From NCBI RefSeq assembly GCF_056746865.1, contig NZ_CM163382.1: DNA of 64,000 bases. One strand, given 5' to 3'. Below are positions 45,672 to 54,861 of this stretch, piece after piece. Positions within the stretch are counted from its first letter, which is position 1, and each line of letters opens with the position of its first letter. The position numbers and the translations under genes are program-made. The notes under the pieces were generated by a model. That model was not told the DNA's origin. It searched no databases and was given only the letters and a program-made list of their open reading frames with translations.

Positions 45672-47057
45672 TTATTCAGCTGGCAGTGCTATGCGCCACG
45701 GAAGCAGTTCGCTGACCCGGTTGACCGGCCAGTCTGCTATGACGCCAAGCACATGGCGAAGGTAGCTTTCTGGATCCACGTCATTCAGTTTGCACGTCCC
45801 GATCAGGCTGTACAGTAGCGCTCCCCGCTCACCACCATGGCCAGAGCCGAAGAACAGGGTCTTCATCTTTTCACGCAACCAGCTTTCCAGGGATTTCAAC
45901 AGCGGTTTCGTTTTTCGCTGACGTTCAGCAAGCCGCTGCTCTGCCGGCATTCCCCTTATATCCGCCTCTATGGCGTACAACTGACCGATCTGCTCTAGGG
46001 CTTCTTCCGTCAGTGCTGACGGGATGCGGACGTGCACATCGTGGATCTTTCGGCGGGCATGAGCCCAGCAGGCAGCTTCCGTTATCCCACCATTGCGATA
46101 CAGCTCGTTGAACCCGGCGTACGCATCCGCTTGCAGCACACCGCTGAAGCAAGCAAGATGAGTCTGCGGATGGATGCCTTTTCTGTCCGGGCTGTAAGCG
46201 AACCACACTGCAGGTGCCAACGCTGACCCGGCATTGCGGTCATCACGAACATACGCCCACAACCGCCCGGTCTTCGTCTTCTTATTACCCGGCAGCAGTA
46301 CCTGGACCGGGGTATCATCGGCATGGAGTTTGCCGTCAGTCATGACATAGCCATGAAGCGCCTCTTCCAGCGGAGACAGCAGCCGGCAGCATGCATCCAC
46401 CCAGCCCGACAGCAGTGAACGGCTCAGCTCCACACCTTGCCGGCCGTATATTTCTGACTGGCAATACAGCGGGGTGTGCTCTGCATACTTCGAGGTCAGC
46501 ACGCGGGCCAGCAGCCCCGGTCCGGCGATACCCCGCTCGATGGGCCGCGAAGGTGCAGGTGCCTGCACGATGGCATCGCACTGAGTACAGGCATGTTTTT
46601 CCCGTACCGTCCGGATAACCCGGAAGGCGCTACGCATCAACTCCAGCTGTTCGGCGGTATCCTCGCCCAGATAGCTCAGTGAACCGCCGCAGTTCGGGCA
46701 GCACGGCGCCGCAGGCAACAGTCGCTTTTCGTCACGGGGTAGTGATTCAGGGAACGGCTTACGGGTGCGGGTCTGACGCAACGGACGCTGTACTGCCGGG
46801 TCATACACCCTACCAGTCAGCGTATCGCTCTCTTTCTGAAGCCGGTTCAGATCGGCTTCCATTTGTGCGATACGGCGGGAGACTTTTTCGGAACGACTGC
46901 CGAAGTTCATCCGGCGGAGTTTATCCAGCTGCGCCTGCAGATGGTCTATTTCGCGCTCCCGGTTGCTCAGCTTTTCCTGCAGGGCGTGGATCAGCGCTTC
47001 CTGTTCGGCCAGGCGCTGTTTTAGCAGGAAGATGTCGTCAGAAGAGATGTCGTTCAT
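45672..47057 (-). CDS. IS66-family transposase TnpC (orf3)
   Basis: 461-aa ORF; N-terminal leucine zipper, zinc motif CPNCGG...CTQCD, C-terminal ...[19 protein letters not shown]... Confidence 0.85.
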
Positions 47058-47106
47058 AAGCCCGTATTTTACCGGGCTTATTCTGTGACAACCAGGATAA
47101 AGAGAT

Positions 47107-47454
47107 TTACAGCATGGTCAGGGAGGTCAGCAGCCGCTTGGGCTGTCGCCAGTCGATACCTTCCAGCAGCATCGCCAGCTGCGCCTGCGTAAGGAACACT
47201 TTGCCATCACGGGCTGACGGCCAGGCGAAGCGCCCACGCTCCAGCCGTTTGGTCAGGAGGCACAGTCCGTCACCGGTGGACCACAGCAGTTTAACCTGAC
47301 TGCCGCTGCGGCCCCGGAAAATGAAAACATGGCCGGACATGGGATCGTCTTTCAGCGCCGTTTGTACTTTCGCAGCCAGGCCGTTGAAGCCATTTCTCAT
47401 ATCGGTGATACCGGCAACCAGCCAAATTTTGGTCCCGGAAGGTAACGGGATCAT
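47107..47454 (-). CDS. IS66-family TnpB (orf2)
   Basis: 115-aa [30 protein letters not shown]...; 4-bp overlap with orf1. Confidence 0.85.
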
Positions 47455-47852
47455 CGCTTCAGTTCCTGTATCAGCAGAGTCAGGAGCTTTTCGCTGACAT
47501 TGCCATTGAAGCGGAGCGTCCCGTGCCGGAACGTTACCTCACAGCTGATACTGAGGGTTTCCGGGTCCTCTGCGAGCGATTCTGGCTGTTCGGCAGCTGC
47601 ATCGAGAGTCACAGGAAGTAGCTGGGGGCTCTCTGAAGAAGGTAATAGCAGCTTTCCCTCGCGCCATTGTTGTCGCCATTTGAACAACAGATTGGCGTTA
47701 ATGCCATTTTCAAGAGCAAGTTTTGAGATGGATATCCCGGGTTCACAGGAGGCAGCAACGAGCAGCTGTTTAAATTCGGGAGGATAATTAGGGCAGCCTT
47801 TTCGCCTGCCGGGAGTCACATTTTTCTGCATATCTGACACTTTGGTTCCCAC
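47451..47852 (-). CDS. IS66-family TnpA (orf1, HTH)
   Basis: 133-aa ORF ...YPPEFKQLLVAASCEPGISISKLALENGINANLLFKWRQQ... Confidence 0.8.
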   Translation of the reverse strand: MGTKVSDMQKNVTPGRRKGCPNYPPEFKQLLVAASCEPGISISKLALENGINANLLFKWRQQWREGKLLLPSSESPQLLPVTLDAAAEQPESLAEDPETLSISCEVTFRHGTLRFNGNVSEKLLTLLIQELKR

Positions 47853-48185
47853 TACTTATTTGGTGGACACCACTTTGTCTAATTCGTCAGATTCTGACCA
47901 GACGGTTCAGGCTGTACGCTTACCACTATTTTATCCCTGTTGAATTTGGTTAAGCCGGTGCAGACGCGCCGGGAAACGCACACCTGAACCGGTACAATAA
48001 AATACAATACAACCCCCTGTTACTGGAGATACGAATGGAATGACGAGGCAGCCTGTCAGTCACAGGGGGCTGTTGGCATAAAATCAATGGAAAGGCCACC
48101 AACACCGGAATTAAGCTCCACAGTCCCCGCACTGGCAATCCATTCCCGGGAAAGGCATCACCGCAAACTGCTCCGGAGGCAACCA

Positions 48186-48620
48186 TTACAGCCTCTGTAA
48201 CGGATTATCAGCCCTGGCATCTTCCGACGGCACCTCCTGCCGCCCCCACGCCCTGCTGTATACCCCGGTACCGCAGCGTGGGCAGCACTTTTCCCCCTCA
48301 TAATCTTCGTCACACATCACACAAAACCACTTTCTCACCTTCACCGTATAATCCGGAACCGTCATGCCCTGCAGATGCAAACGACGGGCCTCTTTCTCTG
48401 CCGGGTCAAGCCAGGTACATCGCAGCAGGATTTTTTCAGCGACAGTCATCTGGTCATGTTCAAACCACGGTGGTTGTCCGTCATTGCCCCGCTGAAGTGT
48501 TAACGGGCATCCACAGGACACACAGCACAAAACGTCCTGTCGGTTGTGCTTCGCAGCTTCTTTCGCCGTAACAAAATGGCCTTTGCTGTCATTCGCCATA
48601 TAACAGTTCAGAATTCGCAT
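48186..48620 (-). CDS. Hypothetical zinc-ribbon protein (paralog B, about 144 aa from MRILNCYMAND)
   Basis: Cys clusters CCVSCGC and CVMCDEDYEGEKCCPRCGTG; shared PWFEH motif with upstream paralog. Confidence 0.5.
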   Translation of the reverse strand: MRILNCYMANDSKGHFVTAKEAAKHNRQDVLCCVSCGCPLTLQRGNDGQPPWFEHDQMTVAEKILLRCTWLDPAEKEARRLHLQGMTVPDYTVKVRKWFCVMCDEDYEGEKCCPRCGTGVYSRAWGRQEVPSEDARADNPLQRL

Positions 48621-49015
48621 ATTTCCTCCTGAGTTGTCCGGGGAATACTGAATCCTCCGGTCTGGCAGTGTGTGCAGTACTGCTCCCCATAATAATCGTG
48701 GTGACATTGTCTGCAGTGCCAGCTGGCTTTACGCACCACGGGTAAGGCATCCGGTACGAATTGCTGCAGACGTTTAATCAACTGTATTTCTCTGCGCTCC
48801 GGCCTGACATAAGGGCACTGTTGACCGTGCTCTGTCAGCCTGTCGTCAGTGTGTTCAAACCAGGGAAGTTCAGTGTCGTATTGCGGATGGTATCTGAGTG
48901 CACTGCCACACAAGTGGCAGGTGTAGTGAGCATAAGGTGCGGCCTGTGCAGTACGGGCGCCCGTCAGACGTCCGTTGCCATCAAGAGCGATAAAGGATTT
49001 TGCGTACATAGTCAT
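48608..49015 (-). CDS. Hypothetical zinc-ribbon protein (paralog A, 135 aa)
   Basis: CHLCGS...PWFEH...CRQCHHDYYGEQYCTHCQTG; same motif order as paralog B. Confidence 0.5.
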   Translation of the reverse strand: MTMYAKSFIALDGNGRLTGARTAQAAPYAHYTCHLCGSALRYHPQYDTELPWFEHTDDRLTEHGQQCPYVRPERREIQLIKRLQQFVPDALPVVRKASWHCRQCHHDYYGEQYCTHCQTGGFSIPRTTQEEICEF

Positions 49016-49268
49016 ATTCCTTAGCCGCCAGACGACACGCAGGCAACAGCCGTCCCGGTACGGGCAGCGTGGTCAGGGTGTGAATGGCGGTTCAGTTAAA
49101 ATCTGGACTGGAGTTTGGGTAAAGCAGGCTGGTTGCTGTTACAGCACTGTGGTTGTCACACAATGGAACACTGACGTAAAAAACAGTCAGTGGGCGAGTG
49201 GATACATCGTTGCCGCCAGACAACAACCCATACTTTTGGTTTGCCGGATATTGGCGCGCCAGTCGTGC

Positions 49269-49838
49269 TCAACTCCGGCTACAGCCAAAATTGCGCTCAC
49301 CGGTGCAGTGAGCTTTGGTATACTCCTTCGCCAGATAGTCAGCACGTTCCAGCACTTGCTGAAAGCCGGTGTCATCATTACGCGCCAGCCACACCGCCGG
49401 CCAGGCCGGAAAATGCACCAGCGTGGCATGGCACCCGACATCCACTCCCAGGGCACTGCACCACGCCTGTTTAATCATCCCGGCCAGAGACTCCGGAGCG
49501 CGGTAATCACCGGCACGACACCAGGTATCCCGGTTGACCAGCAGCATCAGGTGATAGTGTTTTTTACCTTTGCACTCCCCAAACTCCCGGGCCCAGACGT
49601 AATGCAGGGTTGTGGGATGCACGCGTTTACCTTCCCGATGCTTACGTTTCTGGTAAGCGTCGATTCGGGCTTTCAGGGCATTGATGAAGCGGGATATCAC
49701 AGCTGCGTCCGTTGCTGCCGGTACATCCGGGAAACGCAGGTCAACCCGCAATGCCGTCAGGCGGGGATGAACATTCAGTGCGTGCCGCACCGTCTCACGA
49801 ATACGTTGCTGCCAGAAGGGGTTGTATTTGTAGGTCAT
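49269..49838 (-). CDS. Hypothetical protein, possibly YagK/YfjJ (inovirus Gp2-like) family
   Basis: 189-aa product from MTYKYNPFWQQRIRETV..., GGAG RBS 10 nt upstream; family assignment from memory; alternative start 49874. Confidence 0.45.
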   Translation of the reverse strand: MTYKYNPFWQQRIRETVRHALNVHPRLTALRVDLRFPDVPAATDAAVISRFINALKARIDAYQKRKHREGKRVHPTTLHYVWAREFGECKGKKHYHLMLLVNRDTWCRAGDYRAPESLAGMIKQAWCSALGVDVGCHATLVHFPAWPAVWLARNDDTGFQQVLERADYLAKEYTKAHCTGERNFGCSRS

Positions 49839-50034
49839 GGTTAAATCTCCGTATGGTTCATACGGAATAGCCACGTCGTAAAAAATGCGCAGAGTCCCTG
49901 AAGTGACCTCCGGCAGGACACTGTCTCAGGCACTCTGTGATAACCCGAACGGTCGTCTCCGGACTGACGGTTGAATTTTCAGCGTTGTTTTTTTAATGTA
50001 AAAAACCGGTTACGGGTAAGGCTGTGAGGAGGGA

Positions 50035-50238
50035 GTGATGGTGATACGCAAAAAGAAGTGCAGGGACTGTGGAAACGCGATTACTCATAATACAGTGTGT
50101 TGCCCGTATTGTGGTTCTGTCGACCCCTTCGGCTATTACCGGAATACAGACCGTATCGTTACCATACTGCTGGCACTGATTATTGTGGTCCTGCTGACTA
50201 CTGTCAGCGTCAGTGTGTATATACTGTGTAGCTGGTGA
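50035..50238 (+). CDS. Small zinc-ribbon protein with C-terminal transmembrane helix (67 aa)
   Basis: CRDCGN...CCPYCGS followed by hydrophobic IVTILLALIIVVLLTTVSVSVYIL. Confidence 0.4.
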   Translation: MMVIRKKKCRDCGNAITHNTVCCPYCGSVDPFGYYRNTDRIVTILLALIIVVLLTTVSVSVYILCSW

Positions 50239-50815
50239 GATAACGGTTCATGTATCCCCTGAGCTGACAGTGTACCGGGTATATTAAGCGTAACCGACAG
50301 GTTCTCCTTCATACCATATTAAATTTTTCCAGGTATTGCCGCTGCCTTATTTCGTCCCATACAGGAAAACTCGTCTGGGTTTCTGACAAATACGCGAAAC
50401 TCACAGCCCCTCAATATCAACCACACGCTGTAAGCCGGTAATACCTGAAAATCAGCCTATTACCGCCCGCGCCTCCGTTACCGAACGCTCAGGTGACCAG
50501 ACTGAAGCCCTGCACGCACTCGTAAAGTTTGCGGTCAGTTCCGTCAGTCGGTGGGCAACCGCAGAGTTACGGGCTTCCAGGTCCACAGGAGTGAGTCTAT
50601 AACGCGTGTGAAAAATCATTTTTTCTGGCGTTGACAGAACACATTACAGGCTGCCACTTACCCGGTGTCCCGCAATACAGCCTTAGTGTTCCGTTATCGG
50701 GGATCCGGACGCACCGCAACAACCGGGGAAGTATTTCTGGTTTAGAGCTGTGTCAAGAGGGATTTCTCAGCCCCTCACTCACCGGCTCAGTCTCAGAGCA
50801 GGAGTGGATTTGCCC

Positions 50816-51721
50816 CTATATTTCCAGACACCTGTTATCACTTAACCCATTACTGGCCCGCTGCCGTAGATATTCCCGTGGCGAGCGATAACCCAGTGCA
50901 CTATGCGGATGCCATTCGTTATAATGCTCGAACGCCTCTGCAAGGTTCTTTGCTGCCGTTAACCCGTCTGGTTTAGGCATGATACTGATGTAGTCACGCT
51001 TTATCGTTTTCACGAAGCTCTCTGCTATGCCGTTACTCTCCGGACTCCGCACCGCCGTGTTCTTCGGTTCAAGCCCCAACATCCGGGCAAACTGCCGTGT
51101 TTCATTAGCCCGGTAGCATGAACCATTATCCGTCAGCCACTCTACTGGAGACGCCGGAAGCTCGTTGCCGAAGCGGCGTTCCACCGCTCCCAGCATTACG
51201 TCCTGTACTGTTTCACTGTCGAAGCCGCCCGTAGTGACTGCCCAGTGCAGTGCCTCACGGTCACAGCAGTCCAGCGCGAACGTGACTCGCAGTTTTTCTC
51301 CGTTATCACAGCGGAACTCGAACCCGTCAGAGCACCATCGTTGATTGCTTTCTTTCACGGCCACTTTGCCAGTATGTGCCCGTTTCGATGGCGGTACAGC
51401 GGTTTTTCGCTCAAGCAACAGCGCATTCTGGCGCATGATCCGGTAAACACGTTTGGCATTGATCGCAGGCATACCATCAAGTTCGGCCTGTCTGCGAAGC
51501 AGCGCCCATACCCGACGATAACCATACGTGGGCAGCTCTCCGATAACATGGTGTATACGGAGAAGCACATCCGTATCATCTGAGTGACGGCTGCGGCGAC
51601 CATCTTTCCAGTCATCGGTTCGTCTGAGAATGACGTGCAACTGCGCACGCGACACCCGGAGACAACGGCTGACTAAGCTTACTCCCCATCCCCGGGCAAT
51701 AAGGGCGCGTGCGCTATCCAC
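50816..51721 (-). CDS. insD: IS2 transposase InsD (orfB)
   Basis: 301-aa [33 protein letters not shown]... Confidence 0.9.
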
Positions 51722-52044
51722 TTTTTTGCACGCCCGTATTCAACGGCTTCTTTAAGGAGTTCATTTTCCATCGTTTTTTTGCCGAGCAGGCGCTGGAGTT
51801 CTTTAATCTGCTTCATGGCAGCAGCAAGTTCAGAGGCAGGAACGACCTGCTCTCCTGCGGCCACAGCAGTAAGACTTCCCTCCTGGTATTGCTTGCGCCA
51901 GAGAAATAACTGGCTGGCTGCCACACCGTGTTGCCGGGCAACAAGGGAGACCGTCATTCCCGGTTCAAAACTCTGCTGAACAATAGCGATCTTTTCCTGT
52001 GTAGTACGCCGTCTGCGTTTCTCCGGTCCTAAGACATCAATCAT
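51679..52044 (-). CDS. insC: IS2 InsC (orfA)
   Basis: 121-aa product from [41 protein letters not shown]... Confidence 0.85.
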
Positions 52045-52696
52045 CTGCTCTCCAATGACTAGTCTAAAAACTAGTATTAAGACTATCACTTATTTAAGTG
52101 ATATTGGTTGTCTGGAGATTCAGGGGGCCAGTCTAGGAGCATTAATACGCTCAGTTCATGTCTTATACAGGAATGGGCACAGGGGGAGCTGGCGTGTCAC
52201 TGCTGATTTTACGCATCAGCGTTCATGTATTTGCACTCTGATACAGAATGCTTCACAGCGCTCTGTTACCGGAGAGATTTACTCTCTTAGCTTACTCTGG
52301 CAAATCCTTTACGTTACTCTCTGATGACTTCTTATATTTATAATACCAATCAGACAGCCTTATCCCATCGGTGATATCAGTCTCCTCCTCGCCAGGAACG
52401 GGCTGACTCACTGTAACCACCTCCGAAAACAACTCTGCAATTATCAGAACGCTAGTTTTCCCCTTGTCTCACGAAAGTCCTCCCTCCTTTATCGCGCGTG
52501 CGTGCGGAAGCATCTTTTCGCAACAACCCCCCGGGATTCCGCTACGGCTCTGCCATCGCAATCCCCCCGTTTATCTCCGGACAGCCACATTCCCGATTAT
52601 TTTTTACGTTTCTCCCCGGTTGTTATGCCAGTGAAGGTGGCGCGCTGTTTTCATGACCACACCGGCTGGTTTAACAACATCCGGAGGAACATTCTC

Positions 52697-52870
52697 ATGG
52701 CTACCCCTGTTTCGCTGATGGATGACCAGATGGTCGACATGGCGTTTATCACTCAACTTACCGGCTTAACCGATAAGTGGTTTTACAAACTCATCAAAGA
52801 TGGGGGCTTTCCTGCCCCCATCAAAATGGGGCGCAGCTCCCGCTGGCTGAAAAGTGAAGTGGAAGCCTGG
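52697..52870 (+). CDS. AlpA-family (P4 Vis-like) phage regulatory protein, 3' end interrupted by IS
   Basis: MATPVSLMDDQMVDMAFITQLTGLTDKWFYKLIKDGGFPAPIKMGRSSRWLKSEVEAW; reads into the IS terminus at 52871. Confidence 0.65.
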
Positions 52871-54168
<1,298 letters not shown>

Positions 54169-54243: not shown

Positions 54244-54861
54244 GTGAGGAATATGAAAATGAAACAACAGTATCAGACCCGCTACGAATGGCTCCACGAA
54301 AGCTACCAGAAATGGCTGACCGGCTTCACCCGGCACGCCGTATCCTGGGGCGTGTGTCATCCGAATATCTACTACTTCCATAATCTGACGCCCGGTTGGG
54401 TGTCATTCAATGGTGAAAAACCGGAGATTGCCATCGTACCCCAGAGCCTGCACCGGCTGATTTATGGCCCTGACAAACGGGCCACACCGCCCCTGGATGA
54501 TGATCTGATAGTGAATTTATGCACCAGTGAACATCTGCTGGTTCATCATCCGATGCTGGAAGGCATTCTCCTGTCTGAATGTGAACGTCTGAGGCAGCGT
54601 TCTCTGGCAAATAAACTGATCAGCCTCTTCCGTCAGTTTGGTGGCACGGAGTTGCGCCTCAAACTGGTCTGGCTTTGCTGGCTTGATTTAATGACCGGAA
54701 ACTGCCTTGACGACTGGACGGAGAATCTGAAACGGAAATCAGAAAAAGAGCTGGAGGAATGGATCATCAACCGTCAGAAGCAGAGCGCAGCACTGACGGA
54801 TCTGATGGATCAGTACGTGCTCCTGTCATACCGCACAACGGTTGACGATAAGCGCACCTGA
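54244..54861 (+). CDS. Hypothetical protein (205 aa)
   Basis: Intact ORF downstream of the alpA-like gene; no recognisable motif. Confidence 0.55.
   Translation: MRNMKMKQQYQTRYEWLHESYQKWLTGFTRHAVSWGVCHPNIYYFHNLTPGWVSFNGEKPEIAIVPQSLHRLIYGPDKRATPPLDDDLIVNLCTSEHLLVHHPMLEGILLSECERLRQRSLANKLISLFRQFGGTELRLKLVWLCWLDLMTGNCLDDWTENLKRKSEKELEEWIINRQKQSAALTDLMDQYVLLSYRTTVDDKRT

Follow-up and report, generated by a model that had tools for sequence, protein, structure and literature searches.

What do two small zinc-ribbon proteins encoded side by side on an AlpA-type genomic island do, and do they belong to the island itself or to the cargo that it carries? The question is raised by a stretch of 64,000 nucleotides from contig NZ_CM163382.1 (assembly GCF_056746865.1; analysed at its full length and referred to here as the window), in which the tandem genes for ZnR-A (positions 48608-49009, minus strand, 133 aa) and ZnR-B (48186-48620, minus strand, 144 aa) follow a gene for a YagK/YfjJ-type HUH endonuclease-like protein (49269-49838, minus strand, 189 aa), with a divergent open reading frame (ORF) for a mini-protein (50038-50238, plus strand) on the far side. 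An earlier reading of the letters alone, hereafter the sequence-only reading, had proposed these three or four genes as an undescribed stand-alone system, possibly one of defence, in an alpA-containing island remnant. All four ORFs are present where that reading had placed them, the island is indeed of the alpA type, and defence genes do lie beside the pair in other genera. The proposal of a new three- or four-gene system was not supported by comparison across the Enterobacterales, which points to the ZnR pair as a conserved part of the island backbone beside which the cargo varies.

ZnR-A and ZnR-B are 31% identical over 125 aa (BLASTP, E = 2e-15), and both are full-length members of the same two Pfam families in the same N-to-C order, with DUF7828 (PF25165; residues 4-89 in both, E = 2.5e-31 for ZnR-A and 9.3e-31 for ZnR-B) followed by Zn_ribbon_11 (PF11682, formerly DUF3279; residues 96-128, E = 8.6e-9 for ZnR-A, and residues 93-128, E = 1.7e-18 for ZnR-B). 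Because of the BLASTP score and the shared families, the two proteins are, at the level of sequence, true paralogs far beyond chance, as the description of them as a duplicated pair had anticipated. In ZnR-A, the DUF7828 module (C-x2-C...WFEH...C) leads through a helix into the C-terminal ribbon (W-x-C-x2-C...C-x2-C-x-TG). The ordered motif set first noticed in the window recurs in an alignment of 12 A- and B-type sequences from at least seven genera, where the columns C33, C36, W52-F53-E54-H55, C67, W99, C101, C104, G110, C114, C117, T119 and G120 are invariant. Every genus of the alignment therefore retains the WFEH motif and all eight residues predicted to bind zinc, a pattern that predicts two zinc sites per protein.

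The RefSeq start of ZnR-A (MYAKSF), which has AAGGA 9 nt upstream, gives the length of 133 aa; the 135 aa originally assigned correspond to an alternative ATG at 49015, whereas the sizes of 189 and 144 aa given for the YagK-like protein and ZnR-B were accurate. The ATG of ZnR-B lies 13 nt before the stop codon of ZnR-A, so that the two genes overlap by 13 nt, as the sequence-only reading had allowed, and this overlap implies translational coupling.

The family is catalogued but uncharacterised, and the pair falls within DUF7828 plus Zn_ribbon_11 with no difference from it. UniProt lists the family as 'Ybl85' and RefSeq as 'putative zinc ribbon protein' or 'zinc-ribbon domain-containing protein'; sequences identical to ZnR-A and ZnR-B are already held in both databases, and each protein is present in identical form on at least 1000 RefSeq contigs, so the locus is not a new one. 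The statement that the proteins match no characterised family was correct. Their Pfam families are domains of unknown function, NCBIfam and PHROGs returned nothing significant for them, and a sequence search of the PDB found no relative. PADLOC-DB v2 gave no match for ZnR-A, the YagK-like protein or the mini-protein, while the best match of ZnR-B was PDC-S64 at E = 0.063 (10 bits). An AlphaFold2 model of ZnR-A was obtained with a pLDDT of 82; Foldseek searches with it reached a best E of 1.2 in the PDB and retrieved family members alone from AFDB50. Pfam and structure searches revealed two zinc modules in each protein and no enzymatic or effector domain. Domain fusions were sought with a profile search of 1.84 billion representatives, and the 283 proteins that it found were essentially all stand-alone proteins of ~130 aa. 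The 854-aa protein P0274 was considered as a fusion and rejected as a motif-level false lead, being a eukaryote-like RanBP2 zinc-finger repeat protein. In the literature, no paper was found that names DUF7828, DUF3279, PF11682 or Ybl85 in a relevant sense.

The 2.4-kb module is carried by 3,819 of 5,426 complete Escherichia coli genomes; two copies is the median and six or seven the maximum. Clustering at 90% identity yielded 322 ZnR-A and 71 ZnR-B clusters, and the family is restricted to Enterobacterales, as seen both in all 322 ZnR-A clusters and in the 283 representatives at 50% identity among the 1.84 billion proteins. A tblastn search of 50,697 phage records recovered no ZnR homolog, and a phage origin of the pair was rejected on this basis. 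The genes were also found on 33 plasmids, all of which carry copies of the same island module. ZnR genes 84-99% identical to those of E. coli occur in three metagenome-assembled genomes labelled Collinsella, Bacillota and Clostridiales (L012, L013 and L033) and in records assigned to Veillonella (P0035) and Pseudomonas aeruginosa (P0152); these are almost certainly mis-binned or contaminating enterobacterial contigs.

To place the pair in its genomic context, one genome per species was scanned with A-type sequences as the query, and the 23 loci obtained were annotated with seed proteins and all of their neighbouring ORFs clustered. The co-occurrence of the ZnR genes, on which the proposal of a linked unit depended, proved to be very wide. 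The A-B pair recurs in at least 11 further genera of Enterobacterales. The identical 13-nt A-B overlap is found in Salmonella, Hafnia, Mixta, Siccibacter, Superficieibacter, Tenebrionibacter, Yokenella and a Klebsiella IncF/HI1B plasmid; in Yersinia, Budvicia and Serratia the two genes also follow one another but do not show exactly this overlap. Each locus with sufficient flanking sequence has a YagK- or Rep-like gene at most ~2 kb upstream of the pair, and alpA adjoins the module except in Escherichia, where it is divergent and ~3.5 kb away. Three gene orders were recognised. The usual one is YagK-type HUH gene, alpA, ZnR-A, ZnR-B, UCP030791 and DUF2913; a second runs alpA, hyp200, Rep193-type HUH gene, ZnR-A, ZnR-B and UCP030791; and in E. 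coli the order is YagK, ZnR-A and ZnR-B. The pair is retained in the module across all three.

What follows the module is unrelated from locus to locus. Dsr1 lies directly after ZnR-B in Yersinia proxima (L023, 10953-14756), a complete Type I restriction-modification (R-M) system after the module in Superficieibacter (L018, 12902-18682), a Dpd (7-deazaguanine DNA modification) cluster in Citrobacter (L004, 8651-16302), and type VI secretion system, sugar-utilisation or fec genes in E. coli. The slot after the module is thus a cargo hotspot of the island family. In ~20 loci the position of the ZnR pair within the alpA/HUH module is fixed, and because this position is conserved across genera while the downstream cargo varies, synteny identifies the pair as a backbone element at the cargo border and not as cargo.

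The 189-aa protein encoded upstream, annotated as 'inovirus Gp2 family' in RefSeq, matches YagK_YfjJ_C (E = 8.2e-48) and REP_ORF2-G2P (E = 3.1e-5) in Pfam and phrog_25019 (E = 1.8e-40) in PHROGs, and phmmer aligns it with K-12 YagK (E = 3e-37) and YfjJ (E = 2e-30). It contains an HUH motif (HYH in KKHYHLMLLV) and a YxxK tyrosine motif (YLAK in ADYLAKEY), both of which are kept in a Klebsiella plasmid ortholog; the ratio of nonsynonymous to synonymous substitution rates (dN/dS) between the two genes is 0.095, indicating strong constraint. Profile and motifs identify the protein as HUH Rep-like, of the YagK/YfjJ and inovirus Gp2 kind, with a predicted nicking activity; a PDB sequence search found no relative. 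Its start is an ATG with a GGAG Shine-Dalgarno sequence, and the 201-aa form that begins at the GTG at 49874 is the mechanical maximum. UCP030791, encoded downstream of ZnR-B in other genera, is a homolog of YagK (BLASTP, E = 9e-13) that lacks both HUH histidines and the YxxK tyrosine, which marks it by sequence as a catalytically dead paralog. ZnR-B is followed by UCP030791 and then a DUF2913 protein in most islands outside Escherichia (L008, 8810-9391; L015, 10839-11474; L038, 9903-10469 and 10546-11151). With these residues missing from UCP030791, an active and a 'dead' HUH paralog would therefore flank the ZnR pair in most non-Escherichia islands. A 289-aa ORF on the plus strand (48975-49844) runs antisense across the entire YagK-like gene and the adjoining spacer, and comparable long antisense ORFs cover ZnR-A in other loci; these are most likely composition artefacts and not genes.

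The proximity of the YagK-like gene to ZnR-A in the window had suggested that the two are partners in one module. The spacer between them is, at 259 nt, not short as had been described, and it holds, at 49092-49226 (minus strand), the 3' relic of a Rep193/REP_ORF2-G2P-type gene. In an alignment of upstream regions, this relic matches the part of the Rep-like gene that encodes the C-terminus in the Citrobacter, Salmonella and Mixta loci (GGNDVSTRPLT compared with YGCNEVPDRPLTG), and in these three genera the gene stands intact ahead of ZnR-A. The relic is evidence that the E. coli gene order probably arose by replacement. Since alpA or another Rep-like gene lies upstream of the pair elsewhere and the E. 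coli spacer keeps this relic, the YagK-ZnR-A adjacency is a secondary juxtaposition specific to Escherichia islands and was not upheld as a feature of the proposed system. The K-12 proteins YagK (CP4-6) and YfjJ (CP4-57) resemble the 189-aa protein in Pfam family, HUH motif and YxxK motif; they differ in that no ZnR genes follow them. The K-12 genes yoeG/yoeH, yagN and ykgV were tried as ZnR equivalents and rejected, as none is homologous.

The divergent mini-protein of 66-67 aa, which has an N-terminal CxxC...CxxC and one C-terminal transmembrane helix, was likewise not retained as a part of the module. Its gene is preceded by a strong AGGAGG Shine-Dalgarno sequence, and it is probably a real small protein because its ribbon is invariant among variants and its transmembrane segment remains hydrophobic despite varying in sequence. 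Pfam gives generic zinc-ribbon matches alone (E ≥ 0.014). Its homologs form 73 clusters, nearly all from E. coli or Shigella, and it was not found in the ZnR module of any non-Escherichia locus of the 23-locus set. The mini-protein is therefore a neighbour of the pair in Escherichia islands that lies outside the conserved module. Beyond it, a 55-aa ORF (50452-50619, minus strand) occupies the position of an Hha/YmoA-family gene in related islands (L003, L040 and L041) and resembles the copy in L003 (E = 8e-11); it is possibly an hha-like gene that has diverged or been truncated.

Purifying selection acts on both ZnR genes: dN/dS is 0.15-0.28 for ZnR-A and 0.10-0.28 for ZnR-B in pairs whose synonymous divergence (dS) ranges from 0.15 to ~1.5. 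The Shine-Dalgarno sequence is mostly conserved across ZnR loci. Of the two, ZnR-A is the conserved one, with almost no variation in its first 55 residues; ZnR-B varies more and has sharply different alleles within E. coli. In strain 2012EL-2448 (L040, 8570-8983), for example, ZnR-A is about 90% identical and ZnR-B has a pN of 0.47, and many E. coli genomes match the A half alone at the DNA level. The A/B junction behaves as a recombination breakpoint. In E. coli, ZnR-B falls into at least two very different allelic classes, and chimeric B proteins exist (P0149 and P0172).

Directly upstream of ZnR-A lies a non-coding leader of ~50 nt, GCTGCCCGTACCGGGACGGCTGTTGCCTGCGTGTCGTCTGGCGGCTAAGGA (49018-49068, minus strand), which ends in the Shine-Dalgarno sequence and is kept in 18 loci from about 14 genera whatever the upstream gene. 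Its mean pairwise identity is 73%, compared with 55% in the flanks, its indels are not multiples of three, and it contains an invariant GGGACGG and an AAGGA Shine-Dalgarno sequence about 35 nt apart. A structured cis-regulatory RNA was rejected: no Rfam family matched at E ≤ 1, RNAalifold gave -1.75 kcal/mol with 5 pairs and 0 compensatory changes, and the single-sequence z-score was -0.89. A repeated binding site or iteron was rejected as well, since the motif is present in a single copy per island; D7 and the other short repeats nearby are accounted for by paralogy or by the Rep relic. Given that it has neither an Rfam match nor a conserved RNA structure, the leader is a sequence-level element and a candidate operator or protein-binding untranslated region. 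Upstream of the YagK-like gene, a consensus scan found a sigma-70-like promoter match (TTTACA-16-GAAAAT, 49975-50002, minus strand, 9 of 12 positions), and ~155 nt past the ZnR-B stop codon lies an intrinsic-terminator-like hairpin with a T-run (48012-48030, minus strand), near the inverted repeat I4. These would be a candidate operon promoter and operon end; promoter-like and terminator-like matches are no more frequent here than in shuffled sequence, and the promoter is for that reason a candidate only.

The window copy of the module lies, as had been stated, between an IS66-family insertion sequence (IS) element (45672-47852, minus strand; tnpA, tnpB and tnpC, identified from ORFs and RefSeq annotation) downstream of ZnR-B and an IS2 (50805-52134, minus strand) between the mini-protein gene and alpA. 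The alpA-family helix-turn-helix gene (52697-52909, plus strand), homologs of which are annotated as AlpA or carry Pfam Phage_AlpA, is interrupted at its 3' end by an IS3-family element (52871-54128) that replaces its last 10 codons when compared with the intact gene of L001, the chromosome of E. coli FDAARGOS_497. From position 28000 to its end, the window is 100% identical to that chromosome except for the IS2 and IS3-family insertions. IS2 is thus missing from FDAARGOS_497, the IS66 element is not at the matching place in strain 22KM0354, and comparison of these strains marks both flanks as incidental insertions, so that the module is independent of them. The alpA regulator of the island is probably impaired in the window strain, and the window copy of the module is a stranded remnant, with alpA clipped by one IS and the genes flanked by two more. 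Next to alpA, a protein of ~200 aa (54244-54861, plus strand; L001, 23664-24266) has no Pfam match, stands beside alpA in nine clustered loci and has paralogs (p177 and p195) elsewhere in the same islands; it is another uncharacterised backbone family. The island is of the CP4-44/CP4-57/SRL-PAI type, with alpA, YfjI, YeeP-like GTPase, Ag43, DUF932, anti-restriction, RadC-like and CbtA/CbeA genes. A published table of the SRL PAI lists the same stretch as IS66, orf38 with 'no similarity', orf39 YfjJ, Hha and AlpA (PMC6980539), and in a related class of Pseudomonas islands AlpA, Gp2-like and RadC are listed as likely core functions (bioRxiv 10.1101/2024.08.29.610337).

Taken together, the ZnR pair belongs to the conserved 'life-cycle' backbone of P4-integrase/AlpA-type islands of Enterobacterales, a backbone that contains alpA, YagK/Gp2-like HUH genes and, in most genera, the catalytically dead YagK paralog. 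As to its role there, our leading interpretation, which we put forward as possible but short of probable, is that ZnR-A and ZnR-B act together as a zinc-finger adaptor for the island life cycle, binding nucleic acid, the basic HUH proteins or both. Activation of the island under AlpA control would come first, after which ZnR-A and ZnR-B would help the island to process or regulate its own DNA, for instance through origin or nick-site recognition or in building an HUH nucleoprotein complex. In this scheme ZnR-A would bind a partner that is itself conserved, and specificity would come from the more variable ZnR-B. The isoelectric points (pI), ~5-7 for the near-neutral ZnR proteins and 9.7 for the basic YagK-like protein, are compatible with protein-protein contact. 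A faint resemblance of DUF7828 to the N-terminal zinc finger of CoiA, the DNA-processing D-loop nuclease of competence, also points weakly in this direction and is the one functional lead that the databases gave: in both, a short N-terminal beta-hairpin precedes the motifs C-x2-C and [H/W]-F-x-H, in that order. ZnR-B matches CoiA_N (PF25164) at E = 0.39 and its sister family DUF7830 at E = 0.077, both below significance in Pfam, ZnR-A has no CoiA_N match, and one member of the ZnR family is labelled 'competence protein' in AFDB. CoiA has been described as having a small N-terminal zinc finger (bioRxiv 10.1101/2024.02.06.579203). It also has a PD-(D/E)XK nuclease domain (PF06054), for which the ZnR proteins have no match; a helix and a C4 ribbon stand there instead, and then the protein ends.

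Several observations weigh against an adaptor of this kind. The co-occurrence with alpA and HUH genes largely reflects the common descent of one island family and is weak evidence of functional coupling, and the near-neutral pI of the ZnR proteins is atypical for DNA binders. As the family has no characterised homolog, the molecular role is deduced from position and fold class. An AlphaFold run on an A-(GGGGS)6-B fusion reached a pTM of 0.33 and a pLDDT of 64, below that of ZnR-A alone; it gave no support for a defined heterodimer, although with 13 naturally paired sequences and a shallow alignment this is a weak test. The K-12 islands CP4-6, CP4-44 and CP4-57 carry yagK/yfjJ but no ZnR genes, and no family members are found outside Enterobacterales, where AlpA/Gp2-like islands also occur; islands of this kind can therefore do without the pair. 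In addition, the two genes are separated in Citrobacter L004, and pseudogenised copies with frameshifts or stop codons are frequent.

The position at the edge of a cargo hotspot is open to another explanation, namely that the two proteins form a small system of defence or counter-defence in which ZnR-A would be the scaffold or effector and ZnR-B the sensor, to which the sequence-only reading adds YagK and the mini-protein. The pair adjoins Dsr1, Type I R-M and Dpd genes in Yersinia, Superficieibacter and Citrobacter, the slot past yfjJ in K-12 CP4-57 holds AbpAB and RnlAB, and this class of island also carries anti-restriction genes; divergent ZnR-B alleles beside a ZnR-A that is ~90% identical are, moreover, a pattern often seen in sensors. 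Unlike known anti-phage systems, however, the pair has no significant PADLOC-DB v2 model match and holds a conserved position across genera where true cargo varies. Each protein consists of two zinc modules alone, with no enzymatic or effector domain, and the pair has no homologs in the phage records searched, while of the two proposed additions the mini-protein is absent outside Escherichia and Shigella and the YagK adjacency is secondary. We consider a defence function unlikely. A role in transcription-level control, in which the pair would contact RNA polymerase, AlpA or an mRNA leader and so switch genes of the island, its cargo or a helper, is suggested by analogy with P2 Ogr and P4 delta or with TraR/DksA-like proteins. 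The ZnR genes stand immediately downstream of alpA in most genera and encode small, near-neutral proteins with two predicted zinc sites, the operator-like leader before ZnR-A could serve autoregulation, and the C-terminal ribbon is weakly similar to RanBP2-type RNA-binding fingers (E = 0.19, not significant). Ogr and delta are likewise small zinc-binding proteins of P4-type elements, and in P4 delta an Ogr-like zinc-finger unit is duplicated in tandem, which recalls the tandem ZnR paralogs. Nevertheless, ligand spacing and size differ between Ogr/delta and the ZnR proteins, and neither ZnR-A nor ZnR-B matches Ogr_Delta (PF04606), TraR/DksA or any regulator family in Pfam even at E ≤ 10. Neither a helix-turn-helix nor any other DNA-reading domain of a known kind is present, there are no known target promoters, and each island has a single copy of the leader motif, which leaves such a regulator doubtful.

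A much narrower version of the adaptor idea would make ZnR-A and ZnR-B a two-subunit zinc-finger specificity module for the small HUH nucleases (active YagK and its dead paralog), nicking or priming a defined island site for which the leader is a candidate; alternatively, ZnR-B would be a sensor that couples cues from a helper phage or an invader to that step. Both forms are speculative, and we regard them as rather improbable. If the specificity module were real, it would equip the abundant 'cryptic P4-like' islands of E. coli, Shigella and Salmonella with an autonomous step of rolling-circle replication or mobilisation. That the island is decaying and the ZnR genes have no function left, or are ORFs called in error, might be supposed from the window copy, which sits amid three IS insertions with a damaged alpA, and from how common frameshifted or stop-containing copies are. 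Such decay is very hard to reconcile with dN/dS values of 0.1-0.28 in pairs of up to dS ~1.5, with invariant zinc ligands, a conserved overlap and a mostly conserved Shine-Dalgarno sequence, or with the number of contigs that carry the exact protein, and we consider it extremely improbable.

The reading of the ZnR pair as an adaptor in the island life cycle, tentative as it is, bears on a broad group of elements. Islands of the CP4-44, CP4-57 and SRL PAI type are present in most E. coli genomes and carry virulence, iron-uptake, adhesin, toxin-antitoxin and defence genes, and how they replicate, move and are regulated after excision is largely unknown. The ZnR-bearing module occurs in about 70% of complete E. 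coli genomes, and the pair is conserved across the order. Its value lies in being a well-defined, testable unknown more than in being a 'new system': establishing what the ZnR proteins do would add a missing piece to the biology of a mobile-element family that is among the commonest in enteric bacteria, and would show whether the YagK/YfjJ HUH genes are active replication or mobilisation enzymes.

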